From NCBI GenBank assembly GCA_965215565.1, contig CBDCDZ010000004.1, positions 288,001 through 352,000 on the forward strand: a stretch of 64,000 nucleotides of DNA, written 5' to 3'. The stretch's first letter is position 1. Each line of letters begins with the position of its first letter. The stretch is from Trueperaceae bacterium (lineage in GTDB: Bacteria > Deinococcota > Deinococci > Deinococcales > Trueperaceae). Below, piece by piece: positions 17,091 to 63,805 of this stretch. The notes under the pieces are model-generated. The model had not been told where the DNA came from and did not search any database. It worked only from the letters and a program-made list of their open reading frames with translations. The position numbers and the translations under genes were made by a program.

Positions 17091-17247
17091 GAGCAGTTCC
17101 AAAACATACTGAGACGGATGAGCGCAGATCTCTGTCCGCAAGGACTAGCGGGATTTCATCTCTGAATGTGCGTGCTAAACATTGTTCTATAGAGTGAGAG
17201 CGTTGCTCCGCATCGCTTCGCGCACTCTGACCAGATGATACCTGCTA
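17091..17247 (+). mobile_element. MITE-like element, copy C (111 bp + 25 nt + 21 nt inserts)
   Basis: GAGCAGTTCC...GATACCTGCTA-TA; 157 bp. Confidence 0.85.
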
Positions 17248-17261
17248 TAAGTTGGGTGGTC

Positions 17262-17465
17262 TCGGCAGCTAGGGCGCGAGGTTGGAGGACTTGGGCGTGC
17301 CGACGGAGGGCGGCTCGAGTACGGAGCGACTGCCCCAACATCTGGCGGCACTCCGCCGAGCACTTCCACCTCTTTCGCGCAACGCCGACAGGTCTTTGGT
17401 TGGCGGACGAACTCATCAACTTAGGTATCGCGGATGTCTTCCTCGACGCTGCCGGGTTCGCTTAG
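17262..17465 (+). pseudogene. uxaC: Frameshifted internal fragment of glucuronate isomerase
   Basis: LEDLGVPTEGG in one frame followed by IWRHSAEHFHLFRATPTGLWL in another, matching the UxaC segment LEDLGVP...IWRxFAE(H/N)xHLFRGTP. Confidence 0.7.
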
Positions 17466-17533
17466 TATGGTCCCTGACGTAAGAATTCTGATAGACTGAT
17501 GAGACAGACCAATTCGTAGCGAAAGGTAGCTCT

Positions 17534-18865
17534 ATGAAATCAACGCGCTTTATCCTCGTGCTCCTCCTCTGGAGTGGCGTGCTCGCCCAAATGTCCGAGC
17601 CAGCCGCCCAGCAGACGGGCGTCAGCGACACGGACAACCGCATCGACCTCATCCGACAGGACGCGCCCGAGCTTGCGGCGCACGGACCCTATGACATCGG
17701 CGTACGCACCCTGGACCTCGTCAACGAGGACGAACTCGACATCGTGAACGCGGCACCCGGCGAGCCGATTCCGCGCTATGACCGCCCGCTCACCGCCGAA
17801 GTTTGGTATCCCGCCGCGCTGTCTGGCGCTGAGCCGAGGGGCGAGTACGCTGCCACGACGAGAGACGGCACCCCTACTACACTCGTCGGACGCGCTGTGA
17901 GGGGCGCTGAACCCGACACCGAGGGCGCGCCCTATCCGCTCATCATCCTCTCGCACGGCTACCCCGGCAACCGCTTTTTGCTCAGTCATTTAGGTGAAAA
18001 CCTCGCCTCGAAAGGCTACGTGACGGTCTCCATCGACCACACCGACAGCACCTACAGCGACCAGGCGACGTTCGGCAGCACGCTCCTCAACCGCCCAGTG
18101 GACCAGCAATTTGTGTTAGACGAGATGGCGCGGCTTTCGCAGGAGGACAGGGGCAGCTTTTTAGCGGGGCTCGCCGACGCGGACGAGACGGGTATTGTCG
18201 GCTACTCGATGGGCGCGTACGGCGTGGTGAACCTGCTCGGGGGCGGCTTTACGCAGACGAGCGTCGAGTCAGACTACGCGCCGCCGAACGGGGTTCTCGC
18301 CCTGAGGCAAGCGGGCAACGAGGTTTATGAGGGGAGCGTAGACCCGCGCATCAAGGCGGCCGTAGCGATTGCGCCATGGGGCATGAACACCGGTTTTTGG
18401 GACGCGGAGGGGCTCGCGGGTATCGAAACACCCATCTTCTTTATGGCGGGCAGCGCTGACGACGTCTCGGGCTACCGTGAGGGGACGAAAGCGATCTTCG
18501 AGCGGGCGGTGAACGCCGAGCGCTACTTGCTCACCTTCGAAAACGCGAACCACAACGCCGCCGCACCTATCCCTGCGCCCACCGAGACGTGGGGAGAAGA
18601 GAGCTTCATGCACTACGCGGACGCGGTCTGGAACACGGTGCGCATGAACAACATCGCGCAGCATTTCGCCACCGCCTTTTTTGACCTCGAGCTTAAAAAT
18701 GACGAGGAGAAGGGCGCATACTTGGACCTACTCCGCAACGCCGAAGACGGCGTCTACGCAGTGGACGCCTCGGGCGACTTCACCGAGGAGCACACCTACT
18801 GGCGCGGTTTCCCGAACCGCACGGCGGTGGGTCTCACCTTGGACTATGAGACGCCCTCGGAATGA
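17534..18865 (+). CDS. Secreted alpha/beta hydrolase (predicted dienelactone hydrolase / PAF-AH-like)
   Basis: Signal peptide, SHGYPG, GYSMG nucleophile elbow, NANHN. Confidence 0.85.
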   Translation: MKSTRFILVLLLWSGVLAQMSEPAAQQTGVSDTDNRIDLIRQDAPELAAHGPYDIGVRTLDLVNEDELDIVNAAPGEPIPRYDRPLTAEVWYPAALSGAEPRGEYAATTRDGTPTTLVGRAVRGAEPDTEGAPYPLIILSHGYPGNRFLLSHLGENLASKGYVTVSIDHTDSTYSDQATFGSTLLNRPVDQQFVLDEMARLSQEDRGSFLAGLADADETGIVGYSMGAYGVVNLLGGGFTQTSVESDYAPPNGVLALRQAGNEVYEGSVDPRIKAAVAIAPWGMNTGFWDAEGLAGIETPIFFMAGSADDVSGYREGTKAIFERAVNAERYLLTFENANHNAAAPIPAPTETWGEESFMHYADAVWNTVRMNNIAQHFATAFFDLELKNDEEKGAYLDLLRNAEDGVYAVDASGDFTEEHTYWRGFPNRTAVGLTLDYETPSE

Positions 18866-18867
18866 GG

Positions 18868-20415
18868 TCAGGCGTCCGCTCGGTCTCCTGTTTGTAAGGG
18901 AATAGGGGCGTACCCCTGTGCGTCATAGCGCTTCGTGAGGATGTCGGTGACAGCCTCTAGTGACCCCTCACGAAAGCCGAAGCTGACAAGTGCGGGACCG
19001 GGCAAGTCGGTCACGTGGTAAGGATTCCATAAGGCGACGTGGACGAAGTCTCGGGCGTGCTCCCCTGCGTGCTGTGCAGCGACGTCAGCTAAATTCACCT
19101 CTTCGGGTTCCATGCGCGTGCGCGAGGTGGAGATGAACAGGGTCACGTCGTGACGCGCGGCGGCTGAGAGGACCGCTTCGCGGCTCGAGCCAGGCTCAGC
19201 GCGTTTGTAAAAAACGTGGCTGACACCGAAGCCTCGAGCCCTCAACATTTTTATCAGTCTCTCGGTAGGCGGCGCGAGCGTGTCACTCGCCGCGCCGCCT
19301 ACGCTATCTTCCGCCGCGATAACAACGAGGCTCATTTCGTCAAGTTCTGGCAAAGCGCCAATGAGGACGACGCCACGCCGCGCCGCCTCGGTGAGAAGCG
19401 CCCTATCACCCTCTTGCCAAGCGCTCTCAGGGTCAGGCTGAGCGGGGTAGGTATGGGCGAGCCTGCGCAGTCTCCGAAGTTTTCCCTCAACCTCTTCTTC
19501 ATCCAAGCGCCCTTCTCTCAGCGCCCGGTCAATACCTTGTAGGATGGTTTCATGTGTGCTGATAAGTCCGGCGTGGACATCAAAAAGCGGCATGTCGATA
19601 CCCGCGACCAGCGCGCGCACCACCGCCTCGGTAGGGGAGAAGAGGTCCGCGACGGCGTGCATCTCGAGCGCGTCCGTAAAGCTCACCCCGTCAAAGCCGA
19701 GGTCAACACGCAAGAGGTCCGTCATCACCGTGCGCGATAAAGTTGCCGGCAACTCAGGGTCTAAAGCGGTGATGCGCCCGTGGTAGCTCATGACGCAGGC
19801 TGCGCCCGCTCCAAACGCCTTTTTGAATGGGACGAGTTCAACCTCTTGTAAACGTTCTAGCGGTACATCCAACGTCGGCAAGCTTAGGTGCGAGTCCGTA
19901 TCCGTGTCACCGTGACCGGGAAAGTGTTTGACCGTTGCCGCGACGCCCTCGCTCTGTAAACCGCGAACGTAAGCCGCGACGTGCTCAGCGACGTGCGCGG
20001 GGTCACTCCCGAAAGACCGCTCGCCGATGACGGGATTGCGCGGGTTGTTGTTCACGTCCGCGACGGGCGCGAAGTTGACGCCCACGCCCACCGAACGCAA
20101 ACCTCTTGCGGTTGCAGCGGCAACCTTGTAGGTCAGCTCGCGGTCATTCGCCGCGCCTAGGAGCATCGTACCGGGCGAGTAAGGAACGTCCAACACCCGC
20201 ACCACACTGCCGCCCTCTTGGTCCGTAGCGATAATGAGGTCTGGTCCGAGCAATTCACGCAGTTCACTTGTCAACTCCGCTGCCTGAACGCGGTCACGGA
20301 AGTTGCGGCTGAAGAGGCACACGCCGCCTACCTTATAATTTGCAAAAAAAGCGCGTTCGTCCGGGGTGAGCGTGGGACCGGAGAGGTCAACCATCAATAC
20401 TCTGTGCGGGTTCAT
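18868..20415 (-). CDS. nagZ: GH3 beta-N-acetylhexosaminidase
   Basis: DQEGGSVVR, KHFPGHGDTDTDSH, TDALEM. Confidence 0.9.
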   Translation of the reverse strand: MNPHRVLMVDLSGPTLTPDERAFFANYKVGGVCLFSRNFRDRVQAAELTSELRELLGPDLIIATDQEGGSVVRVLDVPYSPGTMLLGAANDRELTYKVAAATARGLRSVGVGVNFAPVADVNNNPRNPVIGERSFGSDPAHVAEHVAAYVRGLQSEGVAATVKHFPGHGDTDTDSHLSLPTLDVPLERLQEVELVPFKKAFGAGAACVMSYHGRITALDPELPATLSRTVMTDLLRVDLGFDGVSFTDALEMHAVADLFSPTEAVVRALVAGIDMPLFDVHAGLISTHETILQGIDRALREGRLDEEEVEGKLRRLRRLAHTYPAQPDPESAWQEGDRALLTEAARRGVVLIGALPELDEMSLVVIAAEDSVGGAASDTLAPPTERLIKMLRARGFGVSHVFYKRAEPGSSREAVLSAAARHDVTLFISTSRTRMEPEEVNLADVAAQHAGEHARDFVHVALWNPYHVTDLPGPALVSFGFREGSLEAVTDILTKRYDAQGYAPIPLQTGDRADA

Positions 20416-20567
20416 CGTCGGCTTCCTATCCTCGAGGGGGCTCGAGTGATTTGGTTCGTGGTTCGGTAGAAACTCATGTTCCTAAAAATAGGGGCTCGAG
20501 CCCTTTTATACTGTTCTACTACCCTAGAAAAGTCATAGTTATCATCCTTGGTGAGGGCGTGCAGGGC

Positions 20568-20633
20568 GTAGGGGTAATTCATGAGTCACCCCTACATTTG
20601 CCTCCTTCTGTAACTTCCCAGCGAGGTCTACCA
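20568..20633. repeat. GTAG-type REP palindrome plus conserved ~40 bp tail, copy 1
   Basis: GTAGGGGTAATTCATGAGTCACCCCTAC-atttgcctccttctgtaac...; second copy at 31268. Confidence 0.8.
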
Positions 20634-20689
20634 GTACTAGAATCCCAGTATGTAAAGAGGTCAGCGCGTCCAACACCAATGAACCGCAT

Positions 20690-21787
20690 CTATAACCCCT
20701 GCACGTCCGCCGCGTCCCGCAGGGCGTCGCCTAAAAAGTTGAACGCCAACACCGCCACGACGATGAATAAACCGGGAATGAGCAACCACGGATAGAGCCG
20801 CAAGGTTTCAAAGTTTTGCGCGTCCGCTAGGAGCAGGCCCCAAGAGGTCATCGGCTCCTTGATGCCGAGCCCTAAAAAGGACAGGGCACTCTCGCCTAAA
20901 ATATACGCGGGCAGCGCGAGCGTCGCCGCCACAATGAGATAAGAGGTCAAGTTCGGCAAGACGTGACGGAGGATGATGGGCAAGTCGCGCACGCCCAGTG
21001 CCCGCGCCGCCTGCACGTAATCTGCCTCCCTTGCGGATAAGACTTGCCCCCGCACCACCCGCGCCAGCGCCGCCCACCCGATGAGCGACAACACCGCCAC
21101 GATGCCCACGTAGACCCACGTCGAGGGCCACGTCGCCGGAATAATCGTGGCGAGCGCCAAGAGGAGCGGCAGGCGCGGGAAGGAGAGCATCACCTCGATA
21201 AAGCGTTGCAGCGCGGTGTCGAGCAAACCGCCGTAAAAGCCGCTGACGCCCCCGACGAAAATACCGATGGAGAACGAGATGAGGATGCCGATGAGCCCCA
21301 CCGTCAGCGAGACTTGCGAGCCAACCAAGGTGCGGCTCAACACGTCGCGCCCGAAGCGGTCCGTGCCGAGTGGGAAGAAGAGACCCTCTTCGATGCCGAA
21401 GAGGTGGCGCTCGGTGCGGAAGAGCCCTAAAAAGGTGTAGGGTTCGCCCTTTACGAAAAACCTGAGCGGTTGCGGGTTCGTCTGGTCCGCTTGGTAAATA
21501 CGCTCAAAGGTGACGGGGTCTCTGGCTTGCTCTAGCGGGTACACAAAGGGACCCCGAAACTCCCCCTCGTGAAAGAGGTACAACCCCTGCGGTGGCAGGT
21601 GCGGAAAGTCGCGGTGCTGTGTGGTGATGTTGTAGGGCGCTAAGAACTGCGAAAAGAGTGCCATGAGGTACAAGAGGATAAGGGTGACGCCGCCCGCTAC
21701 GCCGACTTTAGAGCGCTTGAAGCGCCGCCAGCCGAGGCGGAAGGGGGAGACGGCACTCGAGTCTTCTCGAGTCGCATCTTTAGTCAT
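20690..21787 (-). CDS. Peptide/oligosaccharide ABC transporter permease (DppC-like)
   Basis: LGTDRFGRD, YVQAARALG, RHVLPN, LSFLGLG. Confidence 0.93.
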   Translation of the reverse strand: MTKDATREDSSAVSPFRLGWRRFKRSKVGVAGGVTLILLYLMALFSQFLAPYNITTQHRDFPHLPPQGLYLFHEGEFRGPFVYPLEQARDPVTFERIYQADQTNPQPLRFFVKGEPYTFLGLFRTERHLFGIEEGLFFPLGTDRFGRDVLSRTLVGSQVSLTVGLIGILISFSIGIFVGGVSGFYGGLLDTALQRFIEVMLSFPRLPLLLALATIIPATWPSTWVYVGIVAVLSLIGWAALARVVRGQVLSAREADYVQAARALGVRDLPIILRHVLPNLTSYLIVAATLALPAYILGESALSFLGLGIKEPMTSWGLLLADAQNFETLRLYPWLLIPGLFIVVAVLAFNFLGDALRDAADVQGL

Positions 21788-22751
21788 ACCGAATCCTCGG
21801 GTCCGCCCACGCGAGCGCCAGGTCAGCTAAGAGGTTACCGATCATTAAAAGGAGGCTGGTGAGGAGCAAAAGCGTCATCGCGACGTACTGGTCTTTAGCC
21901 AAAAGAGAATCGTAGAGAAGCCGCCCCACAGCGGGCAAGTTGAGCACAATGGAGACGATGATTGTGCCGTTGATGAGTTCGGGTAAACTCAGCCCGGCGA
22001 GGGAAATGAGCGGGTTGATCGCGTTACGGACCGCGTGGCGGTTGATGACGACGCGCTCTTTCAACCCTTTCGCCCGCGCCGTGCGTACAAAGTCCGCGCT
22101 CAGCACGTCCAGGAGGTTGGCCCGCATCTGCCGCATCACCGTGGCGATGCCCGCCGTGCCGATGGCTAAAACCGGAATCCACATGTGATTGAGAAAGTCT
22201 AAGACTTTGCCCCAACTCCAGGGCGCGCCGATATATTGCGGGCTAAAAAGTCCGCCGACTTGCGAGCCGCCGAAATTCAGCACGAGGGCGACGAGGAGCA
22301 AGGCGACTAAAAAGTCGGGGACGGCGAGACCGATATAGCCAATGAAACTCGCCACCGCGTCCGTAAAGCCGTTGCGCCGCACGGCAGTATAGATACCAAG
22401 AGGTATGGCGACGAGCCAGGAAAAGACGAGCGTCACGCCCGCCACGACAATCGCCCAAAAAAGCTGCTCCCCGACGAGGCTCGAGACCGGTCGATTCGCA
22501 AAGAATGAAAAGCCGAAGTCACCCCGCGTCACAATGCCCCAAATCCAGCGCAAGTACTGCTCGTACGCTGGTCTATCCAAGCCGAGTTGCGCTTCTAAAC
22601 GCGCTACGGTTGCCGCGCTGAAACGCGGGTCTTCAAGGTAGCGGTCCGTAAAACTCCCCGGTTGCAGTTGAATCACGGTGAAGCAGACCACCGAGACGAG
22701 GAGCAAGGTGGGGATGAAGATGAGGATGCGGCGTAAGAGGTAGTTGAGCAT
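21780..22751 (-). CDS. Peptide/oligosaccharide ABC transporter permease (DppB-like)
   Basis: GDFGFSF, FVRTARAKGL, HAVRNA. Confidence 0.93.
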   Translation of the reverse strand: MLNYLLRRILIFIPTLLLVSVVCFTVIQLQPGSFTDRYLEDPRFSAATVARLEAQLGLDRPAYEQYLRWIWGIVTRGDFGFSFFANRPVSSLVGEQLFWAIVVAGVTLVFSWLVAIPLGIYTAVRRNGFTDAVASFIGYIGLAVPDFLVALLLVALVLNFGGSQVGGLFSPQYIGAPWSWGKVLDFLNHMWIPVLAIGTAGIATVMRQMRANLLDVLSADFVRTARAKGLKERVVINRHAVRNAINPLISLAGLSLPELINGTIIVSIVLNLPAVGRLLYDSLLAKDQYVAMTLLLLTSLLLMIGNLLADLALAWADPRIRYD

Positions 22752-22760
22752 AGCTTAAAA

Positions 22761-23636
22761 TCAGTGCCTACTTCTGACAACGTCGTGAATCCAGCTCAAA
22801 TGACTTGAAACTCTGGTGTAATGTTCAACCGTGCCGTACATTTGAATAGGAATGTCACCTCTCCGTGCACGTTCATCCAGCTCTTCTGTTGGATAGCTGC
22901 TGTACGAGCTAATACCAGCAATCTTATCTCCTTCTTCGGTTGAGATAAGTGCAGGCCCGCCGCTGTCACCGGGTCCGTTGACCCCTTCCAGCGGCAAAGC
23001 GTCTACCATACCAGGTGCGTCAAAATCGAAAGCGAGCATTCCATCGGTGATTTTCGAAATGACATTTCTTGTCTGGCGAAATTTGCCGTCGTCAAGCTCG
23101 CCCCCTTGAATGATTCCCACCTTACCCGTACTAAACGCGCCCCAGCCAAGCATCGAAACTTCCTGACCAACTTCGTCATCATTTTGGTAAAGCGCTATAG
23201 GTTTGACGTGAGTTGCAGGACGCTCGAGCCTGAGAAGCGCAATATCGTGGGGACCAGCACCTTTCTCTAAAGCGGTGAATACGCTCTCTACGAATACGTT
23301 AGAGGTAGTGTCTTCACGGTGACCTCTCGCTCCACGAAAGAGCATTTTGACCTCATCAATCGCGCTACATTCTGGTGGATAAACTGCGTCAATGATTGTA
23401 TGCTCGCGGTCTGCTATCTGAATCTTAAAGGGCACTTCTTCGTAGTTGTCCTTGATCAGTAAATAAAGACAGTGCGCCGCTGTTATCGCCCACGTTTCGG
23501 CTACGAGCGTTGCCACGCCGCTCGCAGGTTGCAACTGGAAAACCGCCGGATGGTCAGCTTCGCAAGCCAAATATTCAGTTGGATTGACATCATGGCGAAT
23601 GACCACTACGTACACCTTCTCAGTCTGGACACTCAT
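22761..23636 (-). CDS. Trypsin-like (S1) serine protease
   Basis: ITAAHC, HDIALL, GDSGGP catalytic triad; lower GC than flanks. Confidence 0.88.
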   Translation of the reverse strand: MSVQTEKVYVVVIRHDVNPTEYLACEADHPAVFQLQPASGVATLVAETWAITAAHCLYLLIKDNYEEVPFKIQIADREHTIIDAVYPPECSAIDEVKMLFRGARGHREDTTSNVFVESVFTALEKGAGPHDIALLRLERPATHVKPIALYQNDDEVGQEVSMLGWGAFSTGKVGIIQGGELDDGKFRQTRNVISKITDGMLAFDFDAPGMVDALPLEGVNGPGDSGGPALISTEEGDKIAGISSYSSYPTEELDERARRGDIPIQMYGTVEHYTRVSSHLSWIHDVVRSRH

Positions 23637-23654
23637 CTACCCTAGCAATGAAAT

Positions 23655-23697
23655 AGAGAGGTCAATAGAGTCGAACCGCATCTCTATTGACCTCTCT
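23655..23697. promoter_or_regulatory. Perfect 16-bp-stem hairpin after the solute-binding gene (mRNA-stabilising element or terminator)
   Basis: AGAGAGGTCAATAGAG-11 nt-CTCTATTGACCTCTCT. Confidence 0.7.
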
Positions 23698-23700
23698 TCG

Positions 23701-25479
23701 CTACTCGCTGATGAAGTAAAGCGGCAGCGGGTTGTACCCAGGAATCACGCCTAAGCTGTAGACGAAGTTCTGCACGCGGTTGTACACGGCGGCGACGTTC
23801 GCGCCCTTAGCGATCATAATCACCGGGACGTTCTCGGCGTTGAGACGTTGCCACTCGGCGTAGAGTTCTTGGCGCTCAGCCTGGTCGGTGGAGGTGGCGG
23901 CTTCGTTGAAAATCTCGAACACGCGCGTTTCCCATTCGTCCATCGCCTCTATGTTAGCGCTGCCGCCCTCTTCGCTGGGCTGGGTGGCGCGGTGCCAGTA
24001 GTAGAGCGAGCCGCCCGGCTGCCAGATGGGTTTGCGCAGCTCGGGGTCGGGTTGGTTGCCGAAAGCGACGAGAATCGCTTCGAAGTCGCCCGCTAAGGCG
24101 GTGCCAAAGAGCGACGAGCCCTGGACGCCCTGCAAGTTGACGCGCACGCCTGCCTGGCTGAAGTCGTTTTGTAGAATCGTTGCGATGTCCGTGAAGATGG
24201 CGGAGTCCGAGTTGTAGGTGAGGGTGAACTCGAGCGGCTGTCCTTCCGAGAGGTTGCGTATCTCATCCCCGTCAGTGTCGGTATACCCGAGTTCGTCCAA
24301 CGCGGAGTTCGCCGCGTCCAAATCGAACATGTTCATGAGGTCAGTCGTGTCGGTATAAAAGGTGTTGTCTGCTGGTGCGGTGGGCGTGCCGGGAATCTCG
24401 GCTAAGCTGTTGTACACGTCGTCGATGACGCGCGCTCTATCTACGGCGTATTCCATCGCCTTGCGAAATTCAACCGAAGAGAATACCTCAGCCAGTGCTT
24501 CATTCGCTGGGTTGAAGTTAAAGGCTAAATGCGGCGGCGAGCCGAACAGCGCGTCGCTGCGAATCACGCGGAAGGGTGCGCCGTCCACCTCCCGCGACTT
24601 GAAGTCAGGAAACTGCGCCCCCGAGATGTTGAGCTGGTCGATATTGCCCGCCAAAAACTGCGCCGTTTGCGCCTCCGTGCCGGGCGTGATGAGGTACTCA
24701 ATCGTCTCGACGTAAGGAAGTTGCGTACCCGCGCTGTCCACTTTCCAATAGTTCGGGTTTTTCTGCAAGGTGACGAGTTGACCGGGCGTGTAATTTTGCA
24801 GCGTGTACGGACCTGTCCCGACGACTTCGCTCGGGTCCACGTCGGTGGGCCAGGCGTTGTTGATGTCGGCGGGCTCCGCGCCGCCCTGGACGCTAAAGCT
24901 TTCTAACTTATGCTCGGGCATGATGAAGAAGCGCTGCTGCAGCAAGAATGCGGCGGAGGCGGTCGGGAGCGTCATCCGCACCGTCATATCGTCCACCTTT
25001 TCAAAGGTGACGTTCTCCTCTTGACCGTCCAAGGTGAAGACGAACTGCGCCGCGTCGCCCGCCCGCGCTTCGGGATTCGTGATGATCTGCTCGTAGGTGA
25101 AGATCACGTCGTCGGCATCAAAGGGTTCGCCGTCACTCCAGGTGACGCCTTCGCGCAGATTGAAGGTGTAGACGGTGCCGTCCTCGGAGATGTCCCACGA
25201 GGCGGCTAGCGCGGGCTCTAACTCGTACGTCTCTAAGTTGAACTCGACTAAGCTGTCAAACATCTGCTGCGACAAGGTCTGCGAGACGCTGCTGACTTCG
25301 CCGTAGTAAAAGAAGCGCGGCGGGGCGTCGTCGAGCGCTAGAGTAAGCGTGCCGCCCGCTTCGCCAGGGGTGATGTCCAGAGCGCTGTAGTCGGGGATGG
25401 TTTTGGGCTGAGCGAAGGCTGCGCTGCTCAGCAAAAAGGCGAGCAGCAGAATTAGGGCTGGATAGACGGAACGCTTCAT
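23701..25479 (-). CDS. ABC transporter substrate-binding protein, family 5
   Basis: Signal peptide, PALAASWDISEDG, LREGVTWSDG, VGTGPY. Confidence 0.93.
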   Translation of the reverse strand: MKRSVYPALILLLAFLLSSAAFAQPKTIPDYSALDITPGEAGGTLTLALDDAPPRFFYYGEVSSVSQTLSQQMFDSLVEFNLETYELEPALAASWDISEDGTVYTFNLREGVTWSDGEPFDADDVIFTYEQIITNPEARAGDAAQFVFTLDGQEENVTFEKVDDMTVRMTLPTASAAFLLQQRFFIMPEHKLESFSVQGGAEPADINNAWPTDVDPSEVVGTGPYTLQNYTPGQLVTLQKNPNYWKVDSAGTQLPYVETIEYLITPGTEAQTAQFLAGNIDQLNISGAQFPDFKSREVDGAPFRVIRSDALFGSPPHLAFNFNPANEALAEVFSSVEFRKAMEYAVDRARVIDDVYNSLAEIPGTPTAPADNTFYTDTTDLMNMFDLDAANSALDELGYTDTDGDEIRNLSEGQPLEFTLTYNSDSAIFTDIATILQNDFSQAGVRVNLQGVQGSSLFGTALAGDFEAILVAFGNQPDPELRKPIWQPGGSLYYWHRATQPSEEGGSANIEAMDEWETRVFEIFNEAATSTDQAERQELYAEWQRLNAENVPVIMIAKGANVAAVYNRVQNFVYSLGVIPGYNPLPLYFISE

Positions 25480-28659: not shown

Positions 28660-28842
28660 TAGCACCACAACATACTGAGACAGTTGAGCGCAGACCTCTG
28701 TCCGCAAGGACTAGCGTTACGGGCAGGCCGCCCTGCCGTTGCGGGATTTCATCCCTCGAAGTGCGCGCTAGACTGTTCATTTCTCCCTAAGGGTGTCTCT
28801 GACCAGCTCCGACCAACGGGAGACAGACTTTGATACCTGCTA
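28660..28842 (+). mobile_element. MITE-like element, copy D (multiple nested inserts)
   Basis: TA-TAGCACC...GATACCTGCTA; shares the 25-nt insert with copy C, which here holds a further 27-nt insert. Confidence 0.8.
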
Positions 28843-31195: not shown

Positions 31196-31267
31196 ACTGT
31201 GTCATTCATACTGCTCAACCTCTTTGAATTTTGCACAATCATCTTTCTTTGCGAGGGAGTGTGCGGC

Positions 31268-31338
31268 GTAGGGGTGATTCATGAATCACCCCTACTGCAT
31301 TTGCCTCTTTCTGTGACTTTTCTAGCGTGGTCTAACCA
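31268..31338. repeat. GTAG-type REP palindrome plus tail, copy 2
   Basis: Perfect GTAGGGGTGATTCATGAATCACCCCTAC plus atttgcctctttctgtgac... Confidence 0.8.
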
Positions 31339-37909: not shown

Positions 37910-37957
37910 GAGGGGCTCGAGTTGCCTAATAGCTTACCTGGAATAGAGTTTTTTATA

Positions 37958-38041
37958 GGGAGCAATGAGTTGAAAGCAATGAGCAATGAGTGAAGACCAA
38001 AACCTTTAGACTCATTGCTCATTGCTCGGTACTTATTGCTA
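37958..38041. repeat. GCAATGA heptamer-arm palindrome, copy 1
   Basis: gagcaatgagttgaaagcaatgagcaatgag...ctcattgctcattgctc. Confidence 0.85.
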
Positions 38042-38067: not shown

Positions 38068-38173
38068 TAGCCATTTCACTTATCGTTGCACCACTGCAAA
38101 TATCATCCCTGAACGTGCGTGCTAGGCGATGTTCTTTCCAGTGAGAGTGTAGCTGACCAGATGATACCTGCTA
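38068..38173 (+). mobile_element. MITE-like element, copy E
   Basis: TA-TAGCC...tgaccagatgatacctgcta; internal aacgtgcgtgct...gtgagagt core. Confidence 0.8.
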
Positions 38174-39187: not shown

Positions 39188-39291
39188 GGAGCAATCCCCT
39201 TTCGGGGACGAACGGTGAGTTGAAAGCAATGAGCAATGAGTCTAAAGGCTCTATTTTTCACTCATTGCTCATTGCTCGTTGCTCATTGCTA
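39188..39291. repeat. GCAATGA heptamer-arm palindrome, copy 2 (with a 21-nt insert)
   Basis: gagcaat[cccctttcggggacgaacggt]gagttgaaagcaatgag... Confidence 0.85.
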
Positions 39292-41674: not shown

Positions 41675-41696
41675 ACAAGGGGTTGAAACCCCTTGT
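41675..41696. repeat. Short REP-like palindrome
   Basis: ACAAGGGG-TTGAAA-CCCCTTGT; related copy near 58817-58836. Confidence 0.6.
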
Positions 41697-41781
41697 TTAG
41701 GAGGAGAGCGATGTGTGGCAGGCTTTTTCAATTCACTTCTGAGATGTATAGAGGCGCTGATAACGCGCACTTCTCACCTTT

Positions 41782-46820: not shown

Positions 46821-46952
46821 TAGCAGTTCCATAACCTATTGAGACAGAATGTAGCAGGTATCATCACCGAACGTGCGTGTTAAACGGTGTTTTATAAAGT
46901 GGGAGTGTTGCTTCGCATAACTTCGTTCACTCTGACTAGATGATACCTGCTA
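46821..46952 (+). mobile_element. MITE-like element, copy F (111 + 21 nt)
   Basis: TAGCAGTTCC...GATACCTGCTA; 132 bp. Confidence 0.85.
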
Positions 46953-48017: not shown

Positions 48018-48282
48018 GAGCAATGAGAAAAGACAGCGATGAGTACCGAGCAATCCCCTTTTGGGGTTACGCAGTCTTCCGAAGGAAACGAACGGTGAGC
48101 AATGAGTAAAAACTGAAGACTTTAGACTCACTACTCACCGTTTCGTTTCGTCGCTTTGCTCCCACTAGGCGAAAACTTCATAATCGTTCCTTCGGCTAGT
48201 GGCTAGCGGGAGCGCACCACGCGACAGCGTATGCGACTGTACTGCGTAACCAGTTCGACTGAGTTGCTTTCAACTCATTGCT
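48018..48282. repeat. GCAATGA heptamer-arm palindrome, copy 3, with many nested inserts
   Basis: gagcaat[ccccttttgggg(ttacgcagtcttccgaaggaa)acgaacggt]gagcaatgag...ttgctttcaactcattgct. Confidence 0.8.
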
Positions 48283-48345
48283 AAACCACATGCAAGCACC
48301 GAACAAACGTAAATTGATGAGTCACAAATCATACTGGGGGACAAT

Positions 48346-55262: not shown

Positions 55263-55263
55263 G

Positions 55264-56214: not shown

Positions 56215-56311
56215 TAAAGTTCCTTCCGGGTCCAAGTGTGTTGAAAACTCGAGTCCCAAGAAACCGATAGTATATGCAGCGAGGTGTATAAATCAAGCAA
56301 ATAAAGGAAAT

Positions 56312-56806: not shown

Positions 56807-56807
56807 T

Positions 56808-57947
56808 CTAAACTCCTAACATCCCCAAATACCACCCCGCCAGCGCGTCCCCGTAAAACAGCGCAATCAGCCCACCAATCGCCAGGTACGGACCAAACGG
56901 AACCACCCGTCCGCCGCCAAACGCTTTAAGCGTAAGCCCGCCCGCCGCGCCAATAAAGAACGATAAGAGGAGCGCCACCAAGAGGTTCTGCCAACCCAGC
57001 ATCACGCCTAAAACCGCCGCGAGCTTCACGTCACCAAAACCCATCGCGACGGGCTCGTCATCCTCTTCGTTGAGTACACCTTCTTCGTTTGGCGCTTTAC
57101 CGAGTAGGTCCAAAATCCACCAATACACCGCCCCTAAAACCGCTACCGAGCCCGCCGCCGCTAACGAGCCACTAAGCGAACTGATGCCGAGGTAGACGCT
57201 ACCCGCGCCGAGCGCTAGCACCCATAAGCCGTAAAGAAGAGGTTCGGAGAGCCTGAGCGTGCGGCGTGTGACGAGGTTAGCGACGACGGACGCAGCCGCG
57301 AGCACTAGGCCGACGGTCCAGCCGCCCAGCGCGCCGCCTACAAACGCCACGTTCACCTGGTCCAAACCGATAGGGAAGAGCCGCTCTTTGGTGTCAGCAA
57401 AGCGGCGCAGCACGAGCGCGCCCAAGCGGTTGATCAGCACGATGATACCCGCGCCTAACGCGCCGCCAAAGAGTGCTGCTTGCAGGCTCGGTAAGCCGCC
57501 AGGCGTCGCGTAGAAAAAGCTGCCCAGAAGCCCTACGGCGATAGCGGGTAACGTCAAACTGTCGGGCAGGATGTACTCGTCGATGTCAATCGCCGACATC
57601 ATCACGAGCATGGCGTAAATCGCGGCGAGGATAAACGCGGTTAAGCCGTACTGCTCGATGGGGTAGCGCAGCGCAATCAGTACGAAACCGAGCGCGGTGA
57701 TCGCTTCAATTAAAGGATAGCGTAGCGCGATGCCCTCTTTGCAGCCCCGGCAGCGTCCGCGCAGGGCGAGCCAGGAGAAAATGGGAACGAGGTCCAAAAC
57801 GGTCAGTGGGCGCTCACAGTTCGGGCAGTGTGAGCCGGGGAAGGCGATGGACTCGCCGCGCGGCACGCGGTAGATCACGACGTTGGCGAATGAGCCGATT
57901 AAAGCGCCTAGTACGCCAAGCAGTGAGACAGTAACGAGGGTCAACAT
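56808..57947 (-). CDS. pilD: Prepilin peptidase / methyltransferase
   Basis: GSFANVVIYR, SHCPNC, GRCRGC, IDIDEYILPD, MGFGDVKL, PFGPYL. Confidence 0.93.
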   Translation of the reverse strand: MLTLVTVSLLGVLGALIGSFANVVIYRVPRGESIAFPGSHCPNCERPLTVLDLVPIFSWLALRGRCRGCKEGIALRYPLIEAITALGFVLIALRYPIEQYGLTAFILAAIYAMLVMMSAIDIDEYILPDSLTLPAIAVGLLGSFFYATPGGLPSLQAALFGGALGAGIIVLINRLGALVLRRFADTKERLFPIGLDQVNVAFVGGALGGWTVGLVLAAASVVANLVTRRTLRLSEPLLYGLWVLALGAGSVYLGISSLSGSLAAAGSVAVLGAVYWWILDLLGKAPNEEGVLNEEDDEPVAMGFGDVKLAAVLGVMLGWQNLLVALLLSFFIGAAGGLTLKAFGGGRVVPFGPYLAIGGLIALFYGDALAGWYLGMLGV

Positions 57948-58046
57948 AAGGGGCATTATAGGTTTGGGGAGGGTATTTATGGCGTGTGATTTTGGGCATT
58001 TGCGGCTTACGAGGTGCAGCGGTCACTGATATTTCGTAGCGTCTGC

Positions 58047-58096
58047 GTCAGCTAATCAGCGTTTTAGGAATTAAAAGCTGACGTGCTGAAATGCTA
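58047..58096. repeat. Inverted heptamer array (TCAGC-type)
   Basis: tcagctaatcagc...gctgacgtgctgaaatgct. Confidence 0.6.
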
Positions 58097-58202
58097 CTTT
58101 CTATCCCAGCCAAAAGAATCCAACCAACGTTAAGCATATCGTGAAGCCCGTAACGGTTTTTAAGAGGATGCATTCTCATCCTCCCCTCGGTATACTGCCC
58201 CC

Positions 58203-58697
58203 ATGAAGCGATTTTTACCCGTTACTCTACTCGTAAGCCTTCTCTCTCTCTTCGCGCTCGGCGCGGCGCAGGACGAACTCAACATCGCCTTTGTGGACGC
58301 GGGCGCGGTTTTAGCGGCGCATCCCGCCGGGGCGCAGGCGCAGCAGTTGGAGGAGCAAGCCAGAACCGAACTCGGCGAGATTCAAGCGAACGTCGCGCCG
58401 CTCCTAGAGCGTCTCAACGCGGGCGAAGAGCTGACCGCTGAGGAGCGCAGCACCTTAGACCTCTCGCAGCGCACCTATCAGGAGACCCAAGCGCGTTACC
58501 GCGAGGAGATTCAAGCGACAATTCAACCCGCAGAAGAGGCGGTGGACGCAATTATTCAAGAAATCGCTCAGACGAACGGCTACACGCTCGTGCTTAACCA
58601 AGGGGTCGCGGCAAGCTCGGCGCTCGTCGTCTACGCGGCGGAGGGCTTTCCCAACATCACCCAAGAGGTCATCGACCGCGTCAACGCGGGCGGCTAG
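58203..58697 (+). CDS. OmpH/Skp family periplasmic chaperone
   Basis: Signal peptide, IAFVD, coiled coil, GYTLVL...VVYA...NITQEV. Confidence 0.88.
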   Translation: MKRFLPVTLLVSLLSLFALGAAQDELNIAFVDAGAVLAAHPAGAQAQQLEEQARTELGEIQANVAPLLERLNAGEELTAEERSTLDLSQRTYQETQARYREEIQATIQPAEEAVDAIIQEIAQTNGYTLVLNQGVAASSALVVYAAEGFPNITQEVIDRVNAGG

Positions 58698-58700
58698 AGA

Positions 58701-58816
58701 TAGCAGGTATCATCTGGTTTGAAACACTCTCACTTTTGACAACATTGTGCAGCACGCACATTCTGAGATGAGGTTCCGTTACAGCAAGCTGTGAAATCTG
58801 CGCTTATCCGTCTCAG
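58701..58816 (-). mobile_element. MITE-like element, copy G (24-nt insert; one end replaced)
   Basis: TAGCAGGTATCATCTGG...cgcttatccgtctcag followed by an AAGGGG..CCCTT palindrome. Confidence 0.8.
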
Positions 58817-58854
58817 CAAGGGGTTGAAGTCCCTTATACGAAGTCCAGGCGGCG

Positions 58855-59595
58855 CTAAGCGTCGCCCTCTTTTTTAGCTTGTAGTGTCTTCAAAAAGGTT
58901 CTGTCAGCGTTGGTGAGGTTCGCGTGCTCGAGCAAATCCGGTCTCCGCGCCAGCGTGCGTTCTAATGCCCGTTCGCGCCGCCACCTCTCGACGTTCGCGT
59001 GGTGTCCACTCGTCAAGATTTCGGGGATGCCCATACCTTCATATTCAGCCGGACGGGTGTATTCGGGGTAGTCCAAGAGCCCTGTCGAGAACGAATCCTG
59101 CTCATAACTTTGCGCGTCGCCCAACACGCCCGGCACGAGCCGCGCCGTCGCTTCAATCAGCGCTAGCGCCGCGATTTCGCCGCCCATGAGCACGTAATCG
59201 CCGATGCTGACCTCTTTGATGACGAAAGACTCCACCCTCGCGTCAAACCCCTCATAGCGTCCTGAAAGTAAACAAAGGTGCTCTTTCGCCGCCAAATCCT
59301 CTGCCATCTTTTGCGTGAAGGGTTCGCCAGCAGGGGAGAGCAGAATCACCTCATCGGGCAGCGATTCCCTTTTGACCGCTTCAATCGCCCGCGCCGCAAC
59401 GTCCACCCGAATGACCATCCCCGCGCCGCCGCCATAAGGTGTGTCGTCCACGTTTCGGTGCTTATTCTCGGCGTAGTCGCGCAAATCGCGCACGTCGAAG
59501 CTGAGGTGTCCGTTTTTCACGGCGCGTCCTAAGAGGGCTTCTTCGGTCCAAGGACGCAAGAGGTTGGGGAAGAGGGTGAGGAGGGTGTATTTCAT
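58855..59595 (-). CDS. trmD: tRNA (guanine-N1)-methyltransferase
   Basis: [35 protein letters not shown]. Confidence 0.97.
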
Positions 59596-60105
59596 TTAGC
59601 TAGGTTCGAGCAACCCCTCCGGCGCATTTTCGATCACGATACCCTCGTCGCTAATTTCCACATAATCGGCTTGGAGCGGCACCAGATATTCTTCACCTTC
59701 GTGGAGAATTGCCAAGAGGTCTTGGAAGCCTGCGGAGATCACGTCGACGACTTCGCCGAAGGCTTCGCCGTCCACGTATACGGGAAGCTCGAGCAATAGT
59801 TCTAAATAGAACCCCTCTTCGGGCTCGGGTAGGTCTTCAGCCCTCGCGTAGACCTCTTCATTGACGAGGGGTTTGGCTTGTTCGATTTTGGTAATGCCCC
59901 CGAGATACACCACTGTTTGACCACCGACGCGCCGCACCTGCGTCAGTCTGCGCTCGCCCAAACTCGTGACGAAAACGCGCTCCAGCTTGAAGATCGCCTC
60001 CGCCTCCGCCTGACCCAAACCGTAAAAACGGAGACCCCCGGCGAGTTGGAAGGTCTTTCCCAACGTGCCGAGGAGCAGGGCGTTTTCGGGCGGTTCTACT
60101 GCCAC
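59596..60105 (-). CDS. rimM: 16S rRNA processing protein
   Basis: Position in rpsP-khpA-rimM-trmD; LPEPEEGFY, PRC-barrel-like C-terminus. Confidence 0.9.
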   Translation of the reverse strand: MAVEPPENALLLGTLGKTFQLAGGLRFYGLGQAEAEAIFKLERVFVTSLGERRLTQVRRVGGQTVVYLGGITKIEQAKPLVNEEVYARAEDLPEPEEGFYLELLLELPVYVDGEAFGEVVDVISAGFQDLLAILHEGEEYLVPLQADYVEISDEGIVIENAPEGLLEPS

Positions 60106-60112
60106 GTGCTAG

Positions 60113-60343
60113 TTAATCAATGAGGTGAACGTCGACGCGCTGCCGCCCGTCTGCAGCGGCGCGGGCGAGCGTGCGGATGCTGTTGATCAGGCGTCCGCCG
60201 CGCCCGATGATGCGCCCCGCGTCACCCTCCGCACAGTGAATCTCGATGTGGACGCCGCGCGCGTCGGCGCGCGACTCGACGCGGAGCTTGTCGGGCTCCT
60301 CCACGAGATTTTGTAAGGCGAAGGTAACAAGTTCTAGGGGCAT
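60113..60343 (-). CDS. khpA: KH-domain RNA-binding protein
   Basis: GRIIGRGGRLINSIRT. Confidence 0.9.
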   Translation of the reverse strand: MPLELVTFALQNLVEEPDKLRVESRADARGVHIEIHCAEGDAGRIIGRGGRLINSIRTLARAAADGRQRVDVHLID

Positions 60344-60351
60344 GGCTCGCT

Positions 60352-60654
60352 CTACGCGCTCGCTTGCGTTCTCGCTTCGTAGGCGCTCGAGCGCTTCGCT
60401 TGAACCTTGCCCACCGTGACGCCGGACTTCTCTAAGAGCCGAATGGCTGCGCCCGTGGGCTGCGCGCCCTGCGAGAGCCAGTGCTCCGCGCGTTCGACGT
60501 CGATTTTAAGAGGCGTTTCGCTCTTTTCGCGCGGGTCGTAGTAGCCGAGCGACTCGATGTAGTCGCCGCTACGCTTGGTGCGGGCGTCGGTGACGACGAC
60601 GCGGTAGTGGGGGTTCTTTTTTGCGCCAAGGCGCGTTAAACGGATTTTAACCAT
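60352..60654 (-). CDS. rpsP: 30S ribosomal protein S16
   Basis: [30 protein letters not shown]. Confidence 0.98.
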
Positions 60655-60697
60655 GCTGTTTCCTCTTTCCTGAATGTTAGAGATACTCAGTTCTGCC

Positions 60698-60963
60698 GGA
60701 CGGTTCTCTTAATGTTTACTGATCTTGCACCACGCAGATTTCACGGTCTCATTGTAACGGAACCTCATCTTTTGATGTGCGTCCGAGGCGATACCTTCTA
60801 GGCTAGGTGTGTTGCTTCGCCTAGCGGGAGCGGGACCACGCAACTTAACTTCGTTCACTATGACCAGATGACATCCCGCTCTCAGGCAAAGCCGGTCCGC
60901 TAGGCTCTGCCTGAGAGCGGGATGGCTTACGGCTGAGCGCGAAGCCTACGAAGTAACCTGCTA
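60698..60963 (+). mobile_element. MITE-like element, copy H (most heavily nested), between ffh and rpsP
   Basis: cgcagatttc...tcatc, gatgtgcgt, tgaccagatga[insert]cctgcta; left end approximate. Confidence 0.75.
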
Positions 60964-60976
60964 TCAGTGTACACTA

Positions 60977-62284
60977 TCAGCGCCCTAGACTGCGTCCCAT
61001 CCCTCTACCGGGTTGACGCTTGCCCATCTTTTTCATCATCTTCTTCATCTGCTCGTAGTTCTTCATCAGGCGGTTGATGTCCTGGACGCTCGTCCCCGAG
61101 CCCGCCGCGATGCGTTTGCGGCGGCTCGCGTTCAACACCTTGGGTCTGCGCCGCTCTTTTTCCGTCATGGACGAGATAATGGCTTCGATGCGGGCGATTT
61201 CGCCCTCGTCGATGTCTGCGCCGCCCAACATCTTGCTCGCGCCGGGAATCATCTTGAGAATGTCGGTGAACGAGCCCATCTTCTTGATCTTTTGCATCTG
61301 GGTAAGCATGTCCTGCAGGGTGAAATCCTTGAGGCTCGTGACCTCGTCGTCGTCGCCCTCTAAGACTTTCGCCTTTTCGATGAGCGTCATCACGTCGCCC
61401 ATGCCGAGGATGCGGCCCGCCACGCGGTCGGGGTAGAAGGGCTCTAAGCCGTCTATTTTCTCGCTCATCCCCGCGAAGTAGATGGGCTTGCCCGTGACGT
61501 GCTTCGCGGAGAGCGCTGCGCCGCCCCGCGCGTCGCCGTCGAGTTTCGTCATGATGAGACCCGAGACGCCCACGCGCGCGTCGAAGGCGGTGGCGACGGG
61601 CAGCGTTTGCTGTCCGGTCATGGCGTCCACGACGAGCATCGCCTCGTTAGGCTCTAGCGCGTCTTTAAGCTCAGCAAGCGCGTCCATGAGGTTTTCGTCG
61701 ATCTGCAAACGCCCCGCCGTGTCCACGATGATGAGGTCGCGGTAGTTCGTCTTGAGGTAGGCTTGCAGGCGCTCTTTGGTGCGCCCCGGCGCTTCGTCGT
61801 CCTCGACTTCTAAAACGGGCACGCTGATCTGCTGACCCAACACGCGGAGTTGGTCACGCGCTGCCGGGCGCTGCGTGTCCGCCGCGATGAGAAGAGGTCT
61901 ACGTCCCTGCGCTTTGTATTTGTACGCGAGCTTGCCCGCTGTCGTCGTCTTACCAGCACCCTGCAAACCCATGAGCATCCACACGTTTTGCTCGCTCTGG
62001 AGGCTAGGCTGCGCCGCCTTGCCGCCTAAGATATCCACAAGCTCGTCGTGGACGATGGAGATTACGCGCTGCTCGGGTTGGAGTGACATCAAAACTTCGG
62101 AGCCGGTGGCTTTCTCTTGAACGCGCCTGGTGAACTCGCGAGCGACTTCCAAGTTGACGTCCGCCTCTAAGAGCGCCACGCGCACCTCGCGGAGCGCTGT
62201 TTTAACCTCCGCCTCGGTCAGTTTGCCGCGCCCGCGCAGCGAATCGAATACACCTTGTAGCCTGTCGCCTAAACTCTCAAACAT
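60977..62284 (-). CDS. ffh: Signal recognition particle protein
   Basis: [31 protein letters not shown]. Confidence 0.98.
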
Positions 62285-62414
62285 ATGGGTTCCTTACCGT
62301 CTAAAGAAAGACCGCTCCCTACCCTAGCGTACTCATGTAGGCGGGGTCAAGGCGTGGTGAGGCTCGAGATTGGCAAAGGTGCGCCTGACCCGCAGCATAC
62401 GGCTAGCCTAGTAA

Positions 62415-62594
62415 TAGCAGGTATCATCTAGTTTGAGTGTACGTAAGTTTTGCGAAGCAACGCTCACACCGTAAATAGCGCTGTTGCTAGGCAGCAAACT
62501 TGCGTAACTAGCGCGCACATTCCGAGATGAAATCCCGCTAGCCTTGACAGGCTGAGATCTGCGCTCATCCGTCTCAGTATGTTTGGAACTGCTA
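62415..62594 (-). mobile_element. MITE-like element, copy I (three inserts)
   Basis: TAGCAGGTATCATC...GGAACTGCTA-TA; 180 bp. Confidence 0.85.
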
Positions 62595-62598
62595 TAAG

Positions 62599-63090
62599 AT
62601 GCAGAGCGTGAGCGCCTACACCCTCCTCTACGCGCTGAGCGTCGTTCTCATCAATCCCTGGGGTGACGGGTGCGATCTGGACCGCCCCTAAAGTGTACGT
62701 CTTGACCGCGATCTTGCTCCTCAACGGCTTCTTTCTCAGCCGCTGTGAGCTGCTCGAGCTAGGGGCCGCTTGGCGGCGTTCCTGAGCGTCACGCTCATCC
62801 TGACGCTCGCGCTCGTCAGTTTAACGCGGCGGTGGCTGCGCCCGGAACTCGTGTGGGCTGTACTCGGCGCGGCGGGCTTCACTTTCTACGCCGCGCTGCT
62901 AGGCTACCTCCTGCTCGTCACCGCCCGGGGTCCCGCTGCGCCTTTAGAGGTGTTCACCGTCGTCTACCTCGGCTTCACCTTGACCTGGTACGACGCGGCG
63001 CAGTTTAGCCACCTCCCGGAGAGCGAACGGACCACCGATATCCCCACCGATACGTTTCCAGTCACCGGGCTCAACACCGGGTCCATCAGC
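62599..63090 (+). pseudogene. Frameshifted, internally deleted O-antigen-ligase-like membrane protein
   Basis: LINPWG then frameshift then IWTAPKVYVL, hydrophobic remnants, GFTLTWY. Confidence 0.5.
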
Positions 63091-63139
63091 GTCTTCACGG
63101 ACTCGAGTGACACCACGTCACGCAGCCTCTCAGCGTCCC

Positions 63140-63293
63140 CGCGCTTGGCATGGTCGCCCTCAACTCCCAAGAGGTCCCGCGCTAATTTCTGATGGTGGGT
63201 GCGGTCGTTGTCACGGTGCCCATCATAGTGCTCTTCTTCTGGTTCGAGAAGTATCTGGTTAGCAGGCTCACAGCGGGCGGGGTTAAGGAGTGA
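63140..63293 (+). pseudogene. C-terminal fragment of a MalG-type permease
   Basis: LNSQEVPR* then LMVGAVVVTVPIIVLFFWFEKYLVSRLTAGGVKE*. Confidence 0.65.
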
Positions 63294-63339
63294 AGCAACA
63301 CTCTTACTTATAAGAACATCGTTTCCTTTTGCTGCGCAA

Positions 63340-63505
63340 AAACTACGTAATCGGAAAACTGCGTCTGCTCGCTCACGCGGAGCAACTTTTAGAAATGTAG
63401 CGTGCACTTGATTGTGATGAAGTTCCGTTACAGTAAAGCTGTGAAATCTGCGGAGAAGTGTTGCTTCGCATAGTTGCACTCAAGCAATGAAACGTGGAAA
63501 TGCTA
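63340..63505 (-). mobile_element. Degenerate MITE-like element, copy J
   Basis: gatgaagttccgttacagtaaagctgtgaaatctgcg as in copy G; gtgttgcttcgcat module; GCTA end. Confidence 0.6.
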
Positions 63506-63604
63506 TTTCAAGCGCTTCGGTTGCATTCAGCTCGAGCAAAACAGCGCGGTCAAATGACTCAAAGCCGCGCTGTCTCGCTTAAACTATAGACCCTGTTCAG
63601 GCTA

Positions 63605-63805
63605 AAGCAGTTCACAGAAGTACTGAATTGGAAGAGCGCTTACGAAGTTTTGCCCCCGGCAAAAGCCTCAGTTCGAAGAACCATCCCGCTCTCAGGCAAA
63701 GCCTAGCGAGACGGCTTCGCCTGAGAGCGGGATTTCATTTAAGAATGTGCGTGCTCACCCAAGTTCTCTAAGGTGAGACTGGCTCAAACCAAATGATACT
63801 TGCTA
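63605..63805 (+). mobile_element. MITE-like element, copy K (copy-A subfamily with ~90 nt insert)
   Basis: Flanks almost identical to copy A. Confidence 0.88.

Follow-up and report, generated by a model that had tools for sequence, protein, structure and literature searches.

Nested hairpin modules of a putative Trueperaceae genome include a family with the anatomy of SDR5

What are the small hairpin sequences that interrupt the copies of a short repeat, and one another, in a bacterial genome? The question arises from a 64,000-nt stretch (the window; G000:C4:288001-352000) of a 4.49-Mb genome (G000, 99.99% complete) that, like its same-genus relative G001, appears to belong to the Trueperaceae (Deinococcota). 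A first-pass annotation, made from the sequence alone, described the interrupting sequences as 21-27-nt modules and proposed that they form a new mobile system. Across the genome, 129 of 261 full-length copies of the main host repeat carry inserts of 17-27 nt at fixed sites, nested up to three deep. We put the probability at about 0.5 that these modules are non-autonomous micro-elements resembling small dispersed repeat 5 (SDR5) of the Nostocaceae, likely moving as folded single-stranded DNA (ssDNA) and amplified by their hosts.

The host repeat and its modules

The eleven host copies in the window (A-K) are one repeat. Anchoring on its right end locates it at 441 places in the genome, 305 of which also have the left end and 105 the modal length of 111 nt. 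Its ends form short terminal inverted repeats (TAGCAG...CTGCTA). Of the 105 modal-length copies, 42 are flanked by a 3-bp duplication of the target (shuffled mean 3.1, maximum 9); orthologous empty sites in G001 and a second relative, G002, display the same duplication. The host is a DDE-type miniature inverted-repeat transposable element (MITE). It is present in G001, G002 and, weakly, G005, was not found in 57 other relatives, and shows no relation in orientation to flanking genes. A search of 600-2200-bp candidates whose ends match yielded no autonomous partner, and the insertion sequences IS630, IS1, IS5 and IS3 were rejected as partners, their ends not matching the MITE.

Three classes of module are distinguished. 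Type I modules consist of a 5' lead of 1-3 nt beginning with T, a 2-bp stem closing a GN(N)A loop, a spacer of 0-2 nt and a second hairpin that ends exactly at the 3' boundary. Type II modules start with C (some with T), end with T (some with C) and replace one target A. The third class is a single hairpin of 27 nt. Hosts and modules lie in the window as follows.

10496..10606 (+): host copy A, 111 nt, every site empty; lies shortly before the range given in the first-pass annotation and is the closest relative of copy K
10687..10797 (+): host copy B, 111 nt, empty
17091..17247 (+): host copy C, carrying two inserts
17130..17155 (+): type II module of copy C, C...T, hairpin plus AGCGGGA tail; a 26-for-1 exchange replacing the core A
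17204..17224 (-): type I module of copy C, 21 nt, lead 3/spacer 2, TGC-GC.GAA.GC-GA-TGC.GGA.GCA, inserted 5' of AC
28660..28842 (+): host copy D
28696..28748 (+): type II core module of copy D, the same as that of C, enclosing a 27-nt module
28717..28743 (+): 27-nt single-hairpin module of copy D (third class), 27 exact copies in the genome; register ambiguous by 3 nt (GCG)
28807..28830 (+): type II module of copy D, in place of the A in CCAG[A]TGAT towards the right end of the host
38068..38173 (+): host copy E, without inserts, its left end a variant
39196..39216 (+): 21-nt hairpin insert in an array of GAGCAAT heptamers; lacks the type I module that fills the same host site at 48067-48087
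46821..46952 (+): host copy F
46909..46929 (-): type I module of copy F, 21 nt, lead 3/spacer 2
48067..48087 (+): type I module, 21 nt, lead 2/spacer 1, in an unrelated heptamer-array host (48055-48096); site also filled in G001
48203..48240 (+): stack of CTAGCGGG-type (type II-like) modules in a heptamer-array host, right boundary approximate
58701..58819 (-): host copy G, truncated on the left, carrying type II at 58772-58795
60718..60963 (+): host copy H, nested stack at its right end; type II at 60740-60764; type I on the minus strand at about 60813-60857, split by type II at 60821-60845
62415..62594 (-): host copy I, with type I at 62438-62459 (+) and 62485-62507 (-) and type II at 62531-62556 (-)
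63287..63505 (-): host copy J, with type I at 63462-63482, type II at 63421-63445, and type I at 63328-63350 seated in the loop of another type I
63605..63805 (+): host copy K, with type I at 63640-63662 and a three-deep type II stack at 63667-63734

Every copy and module listed in the first-pass annotation was located where it had been placed; the module of D at 28807..28830 was absent from that list. The annotation rightly saw an empty core in B (A is empty too), a shared core insert in C and D, and a variant, of 24-25 nt, in G, H and J. Both of its nested cases also hold: the 27-nt module inside the core module of D, and the CTAGCGGG module within the 21-nt module of H (60821-60845), with a similar one in an unrelated host starting at 48203. 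Its 25-nt and 24-nt core modules exist, not as two different modules but as one class, type II, each replacing a host A; the CTAGCGGG module belongs to this class as well. The GTTGCT module is likewise real, though it was read on the wrong strand, being type I on the minus strand. The shared TTACG starts reflect a TT lead followed by the start of the first hairpin, except in copy H, where the letters are the reverse complement of a type II hairpin. Copy H is spanned without differences (60541-61050) by a contig of short reads, from a run that may be of the source sample.

Anatomy of type I modules

Under a strict pattern, one module family has 132 matches in the genome and none in 2 Mb of fourth-order Markov sequence (both strands). 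A reference-free scan for empty/filled pairs returned 1,232 non-tandem indels of 14-35 nt, most of them due to chance or to duplication; 162 pairs fit the two-hairpin pattern. Insert lengths range from 17 to 27 nt with a mode of 21-24 nt, and recurring type I modules number 347 copies of 125 sequences.

In 62 of 68 parsed unique sequences, the lead exceeds the spacer by one nucleotide (lead/spacer 3/2 in 25, 2/1 in 33, 1/0 in 4); four others are ambiguous in a T run, two break the rule, and 8 of the 76 unique sequences were left unparsed. Stems of the first hairpin covary, with AC/GT in 95, GC/GC in 26, CT/AG in 17, AT/AT in 7, CC/GG in 5 and GT/AC in 4 of the 162 pairs. Among 102 copies of the 3/2 class, lead and spacer pair compensatorily in 59 and are mismatched in the rest, mainly by T.T; the most frequent combinations are TGA/TA (33), TGC/GA (13) and TGG/CA (12). 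Loops of the second hairpin were not selected for by the search. Counted where the stem length is at least 4, they are GNA or GNNA in 45 of 96 modules, against 815 of 11,943 background hairpins (6.8%; first 1.5 Mb). Four of the 96 have the reverse-strand form, 70 are triloops, and none is a GNRA tetraloop.

A review reports that, of 64 triloops, only GNA gives an extraordinarily stable, exonuclease-resistant DNA mini-hairpin, that RNA versions are much weaker, and that standard folding models are said not to explain such mini-hairpins (PMC13037366). In the simplest reading, a type I module is predicted to form a nicked dumbbell in which a single additional base lies next to the nick.

Target choice and recurrence

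Type I modules enter precisely and without target duplication. No microhomology is present in 119 of the 162 empty/filled pairs, and an A lies directly 3' of the insert in 154. The 347 recurring copies were clustered into 52 contexts, of which 11 were dropped by eye as pieces of the host or of repetitive extragenic palindromic (REP) sequences. The 41 contexts that remain (312 copies) have A at +1 in 31, C at +2 in 26 and G at +3 in 31. A topoisomerase-like C at -4 occurs in just 10 of the 41 and is not supported. One exact 21-mer occupies four unrelated flanks, one module breaks up a dead IS1 reading frame, and heptamer arrays that are empty in G000 have filled orthologues in G001. Crude open reading frame (ORF) calls, inspected by eye, showed no recurring module within long genes, the overlaps being repeat-borne spurious ORFs or ORF ends; in-frame modules in coding sequences, for which the first-pass annotation had suggested a test, were not seen.

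At the type II core site, the base before the first TC is C in 62 of 71 parsed filled copies. Of 173 parsed unfilled copies, 159 have A there, 7 have C, 5 have G and 2 have T, so the empty hosts did not arise from filled ones by deletion. The same A exchange occurs at two more host sites (19 filled versus 269 empty, 15 versus 240) and, in copy H, within the type I module. Type II modules also sit at CCAG[A]TGAT and TTCGC[A]TAAC.

Four host sites were scored, and 132 of the 261 full-length hosts are empty at all of them; the sites are filled in 34, 73, 76 and 60 hosts. All four presence/absence combinations are seen for all six site pairs, and the host copies are mosaic. On a FastTree phylogeny of host backbones, a weak tree from a short alignment, filled and empty copies interleave and the four sites need 28, 57, 58 and 52 changes, near the shuffled means of 32.6, 64.2, 66.1 and 54.5. 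Together with the site-pair combinations, these counts mean that modules inserted repeatedly, that hosts recombined with one another, or both. In part, module variants track host subfamilies. In a search for short co-conversion tracts, identity showed no clear decay with distance. At the host site used by type I, larger palindromic inserts of 100-190 nt were also observed (G000:C4 near 609900 and near 4098850).

Distribution

Matches to a type I head number 86 in G000, 35 in G001 and 34 in G002, with at most four in any of 298 other Deinococcota genomes, so that 3 of 301 genomes exceed four; these patterns would miss other sequence families. The 3/2-class pattern has 77 matches in G000, 24 in G001, 19 in G002, 5 in G208, 1 in G218 and 0 in 106 other family members. 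Six of 13 metagenome matches, all from one assembly, carry a module at the homologous site of a related MITE, and the other seven look like chance. Viral contigs gave 15 pattern matches, one with a 4-bp stem, and a plasmid blastn search gave four matches at E about 10; both results are taken as chance.

Comparison with SDR5 and other known systems

SDR5 is described, in the accessible parts of two papers, as a 21-nt repeat of unknown function lying between the third and fourth base of the HIP1 sequence (PMC4390886, PMC13756078). The small dispersed repeats (SDRs) of the Nostocaceae are also covered by PMC5861425. In 150 kb of two Nostoc plasmids, we found five HIP1 inserts, each with a 3-nt lead starting with T, a GC-GNA-GC hairpin, a 2-nt spacer and a flush GNA hairpin, followed by A. 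By eye, among the rows listed, one whole plasmid record holds at least 4 HIP1 inserts and the other more than 15, compensatory variants among them.

SDR5 and type I thus share a 21-nt length, precise insertion 5' of A without duplication, the T start, the 3-nt lead, the 2-bp GNA hairpin, the 2-nt spacer, the flush second hairpin and compensatory stem changes. Because the Nostoc inserts have the same anatomy, type I is placed as an SDR5-like family in the Trueperaceae. The two differ in primary sequence, only the fold and a few heads being common. SDR5 targets HIP1 in the Nostocaceae, whereas the modules here target A(C)(G) in MITEs and heptamer arrays of a Deinococcota genome in which HIP1 is not among the over-represented 8-mers. 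The genome also goes beyond SDR5 in having the 2/1 and 1/0 lead/spacer classes besides 3/2, and a second, A-replacing class. Nesting is common to both. Elhai et al. reportedly described Nostocaceae SDRs in 2008 as 21-27 nt in size and as nesting in other repeats and in each other; supplements or structure figures of that work may already contain part of the two-hairpin reading.

Judged from sequence, type I probably works like SDR5, agreeing in those SDR features that could be compared, apart from the target and the host clade. The first-pass annotation's link to Nostoc SDRs is stronger than it proposed, extending to anatomy, and its view of mobile, nesting, SDR-like modules outside the Nostocaceae is supported by the same module in unrelated hosts, the interleaving of filled and empty copies and the failure of the deletion scenario. 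Its candidate new system is not supported as new in the categorical sense, since it belongs to a described, unexplained kind. In the literature covered, from which most subscription journals were absent, no paper on such elements in Deinococcota and no mini-hairpin or dumbbell reading of SDRs was found. The structural rule and its direct correspondence with SDR5 are what this analysis adds.

Two other systems show partial likeness. REP sequences and their REP-associated tyrosine transposases (RAYTs) involve ssDNA hairpins of about 23 nt and cuts 5' of T or A without target duplication, to judge from the accessible text of PMC8266576 and PMC6006769, and a subclass-2.4-like RAYT is present in the genome. 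Unlike REPs, the modules lack a conserved GTAG tag (they have a GN(N)A loop with a variable closing pair), have fixed ends, rarely have C 5' of the cut and are not clustered round the RAYT gene. IS200/IS605 elements and their miniature derivatives share ssDNA hairpin ends and precise insertion without duplication (PMC6006769, in part). However, the modules are far smaller, have their specificity 3' of the cut on the folded strand, and show neither a guide tetranucleotide match nor lagging-strand bias. The DDE-type MITE is the host, not the module.

Candidate enzymes

A TnpA-IS200 gene was not found in the three carriers G000, G001 and G002. The PF01797 search gave a misleading negative, missing a stand-alone RAYT that lies between mutS and mutL in G000 and G001 (78% identical) and has subclass-2.4-like motifs, by the subclass table in the accessible part of PMC6006769, and an internal REP. 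The G000 gene (C4:3590032-3590556, minus strand) overlaps mutS and mutL and scores 73 bits against NF047646, below the cut-off of 80. In G002 the RAYT was not found, and mutL starts with what appear to be the first RAYT codons/ATG, as after a deletion; G005 and G034 have no RAYT at the mutS-mutL place. The gene was probably acquired in the genus and is the best local candidate enzyme, though a candidate only. RAYTs cut 5' of T or A (PMC8266576, in part), which fits the ^T and ^A junctions of the modules. A Y1/RAYT domain with REP palindromes also lies in frame inside a 1322-aa Eco57I-like restriction-modification ORF (G000:C4:3784710-3788675, minus strand; L009). By pattern, the genome has 33 matches to GTAG-type REPs and 144 to AAGGGG...CCCCTT palindromes, with no nested modules seen in either; window examples of the two lie at 20566-20595, 31266-31295 and 41678-41697.

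No reverse transcriptase (RVT_1) match was found in G000 or G002. An open frame of 618-637 aa that includes a reverse transcriptase domain is present, in four copies, in G001 only (L023, L025-L027). The correlation with RAYT/HUH or reverse transcriptase genes that had been suggested was not established. Among 24 ORFs flanked on both sides by module clusters and read from their N-termini, there was no obvious candidate. Three GIY-YIG genes and one four-helix-bundle gene were set aside, their loci not being flanked by modules. An expansion of Uma2 genes (33-35 copies) was rejected as it is common to non-carriers such as G005, G018 and family f5; G000 has 33 Uma2 (PF05685) genes.

Seven identical IS110 elements (PF01548, PF02371; C4:3105967-3107204, L048, and six identical copies), together with two truncated left ends (C4:3341785, C4:160173), occupy one site of the MITE, GCAGGTA-TC-ATCTGG, with TC as the core. 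Type II modules use the same site. The IS110 left ends contain stretches that match target and donor like the guides of a bridge RNA, following the model in the accessible part of PMC11208160. In a homologue from G208 (75% identical), guide and target change together. Homologues occur in the module carriers G001, G002 and G208 and were not found in G005 or G034. The IS110 element appears to use the mobile MITE as a landing pad.

Mechanism and alternative explanations

That modules have inserted recurrently is very probable, and an ssDNA intermediate is probable, favoured over RNA by the DNA-type loops and by the absence of reverse transcriptase matches from two of three carriers. In the proposed mechanism, hairpin 1 would stack on hairpin 2, joining the 5' T and the 3' end with one extra base. 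Strand exchange at the nick, or at a sealed mini-circle, would then place the module at N^A(C)(G). The catalyst would be a structure-reading single-strand transesterase of the HUH type, possibly the resident RAYT; an HUH-family enzyme is somewhat unlikely. Most copies may arise passively, as the host MITE transposes and its copies recombine with one another.

Several observations weigh against this scheme. No enzyme is established for the modules, and neither free circles nor excised forms were observed. The search filter itself required the T start and, in hairpin 1, the GN(N)A loop, and neither type II nor the 27-nt module fits the dumbbell rule. Nearest-neighbour folding returns the full two-hairpin fold for the circular form only, mostly at positive energy (about 15 of 25 modules with DNA parameters and 5 of 25 with RNA parameters, read by eye). 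The C^T/C^A rule of RAYTs fails, with C at -1 in 6 of the 41 contexts, AA at the 3' junction in 28 and guide complementarity in 9. RAYT homologues occur in 23 of 61 genomes (a tally that counts the unpublished G035), most of these, 21, being other genomes without the module pattern, and the G000 RAYT has its own GTAG REPs. Replichore bias is absent (68 of 131 copies, 16 of 38 outside the main host), with the origin set by weak GC skew and the hosts re-transposed. Cut sites are no nearer to hairpins than other A's (16 of 41 versus 154 of 448, p 0.61).

The modules might instead need no dedicated enzyme: nuclease-resistant dumbbells of 17-24 nt from damaged or processed DNA would be captured at nicks by repair (ligase, topoisomerase or end-joining), with repeat recombination adding the rest. 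The exonuclease resistance reported for mini-hairpins (PMC13037366, in part), the mosaic host copies with every combination at the six site pairs and the want of any gene tied to the modules are in keeping with such capture. Yet exact recurring ends and the A(C)(G) rule, over 41 contexts and in Nostoc, suggest specific catalysis, and the carriers form a narrow clade (3 of 301 genomes). DNA repair enzymes are universal, in contrast to that distribution. Repair capture is accordingly judged unlikely. Copying of modules from transcripts, by reverse transcription or RNA-mediated recombination, is quite improbable. The first-pass annotation had allowed an RNA- or ssDNA-templated route, and the evidence retains the ssDNA half. 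The four reverse transcriptase copies in G001, the few type II hairpins with GCAA or GTAA loops and fixed bases 3' of the insert, like a priming site, would suit an RNA route. The prevalence of triloops over GNRA tetraloops in second hairpins, the weakness of 2-bp stems in RNA (PMC13037366, in part), the lack of RVT_1 matches in G000 and G002, the absence of Rfam matches in the window (0) and the indifference of host orientation to flanking genes speak against it.

An IS110 bridge recombinase that targets the MITE could also place type II at the shared TC core, and its homologues were found in the carriers G001, G002 and G208 but not in G005 or G034. But type II replaces the A that IS110 retains and enters sites lacking the IS110 target (CCAG[A]TGAT, TTCGC[A]TAAC), module junctions do not match the putative donor guides, and nothing links IS110 to type I; this origin is more improbable still. 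Least credible is the case named in the first-pass annotation as its refutation, that long forms are ancestral, short copies arose by deletion and each module is confined to one site. The partial tracking of host subfamilies agrees with it. It fails on the C/A difference at the core and on identical modules in unrelated hosts, one of them inside the dead IS1 frame, and a single ancestor would have required dozens of nested modules.

Other features of the window and genome

The 30 window proteins scanned have ordinary housekeeping, transport and metabolic functions. A low-GC gene (14619-15770) matches only the N-terminal domain of type I restriction HsdR. Several palindromic hexamers are strongly avoided in the genome, for example GGCGCC (39 observed versus 3661 expected), and CTCGAG is abundant. 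Arrays of tandem heptamers (GAGCAAT, GCTGACTA and types related to them), inverted in their arrangement, lie at 37950-38041, 39190-39291 and 48020-48290, with further arrays at 452-569, 8971-9040 and 12820-12889; several bear their own 21-22-nt hairpin inserts. We take them to resemble the short tandemly repeated repetitive sequences (STRRs) of cyanobacteria.

Implications

Finding SDR5 anatomy in another phylum, with 125 natural variants, turns it into explicit rules: a 5' T, a GNA mini-hairpin, an extra base, a flush hairpin and insertion at ^A. We tentatively propose that elements of the SDR5 type form a class of 17-24-nt mobile DNAs that crosses phyla and is defined by its fold rather than its sequence, as self-templated nicked dumbbells of two GNA mini-hairpins. 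These would close into a tiny covalent circle and be inserted 5' of A by an unrecognised structure-specific transesterase common to Nostocaceae, Trueperaceae and other lineages. A structural rule that spans two phyla makes the mechanism testable with oligonucleotides. If a structure-reading enzyme does insert 21-nt folded DNA scarlessly, it would represent new DNA chemistry and a possible tool for precise insertion.

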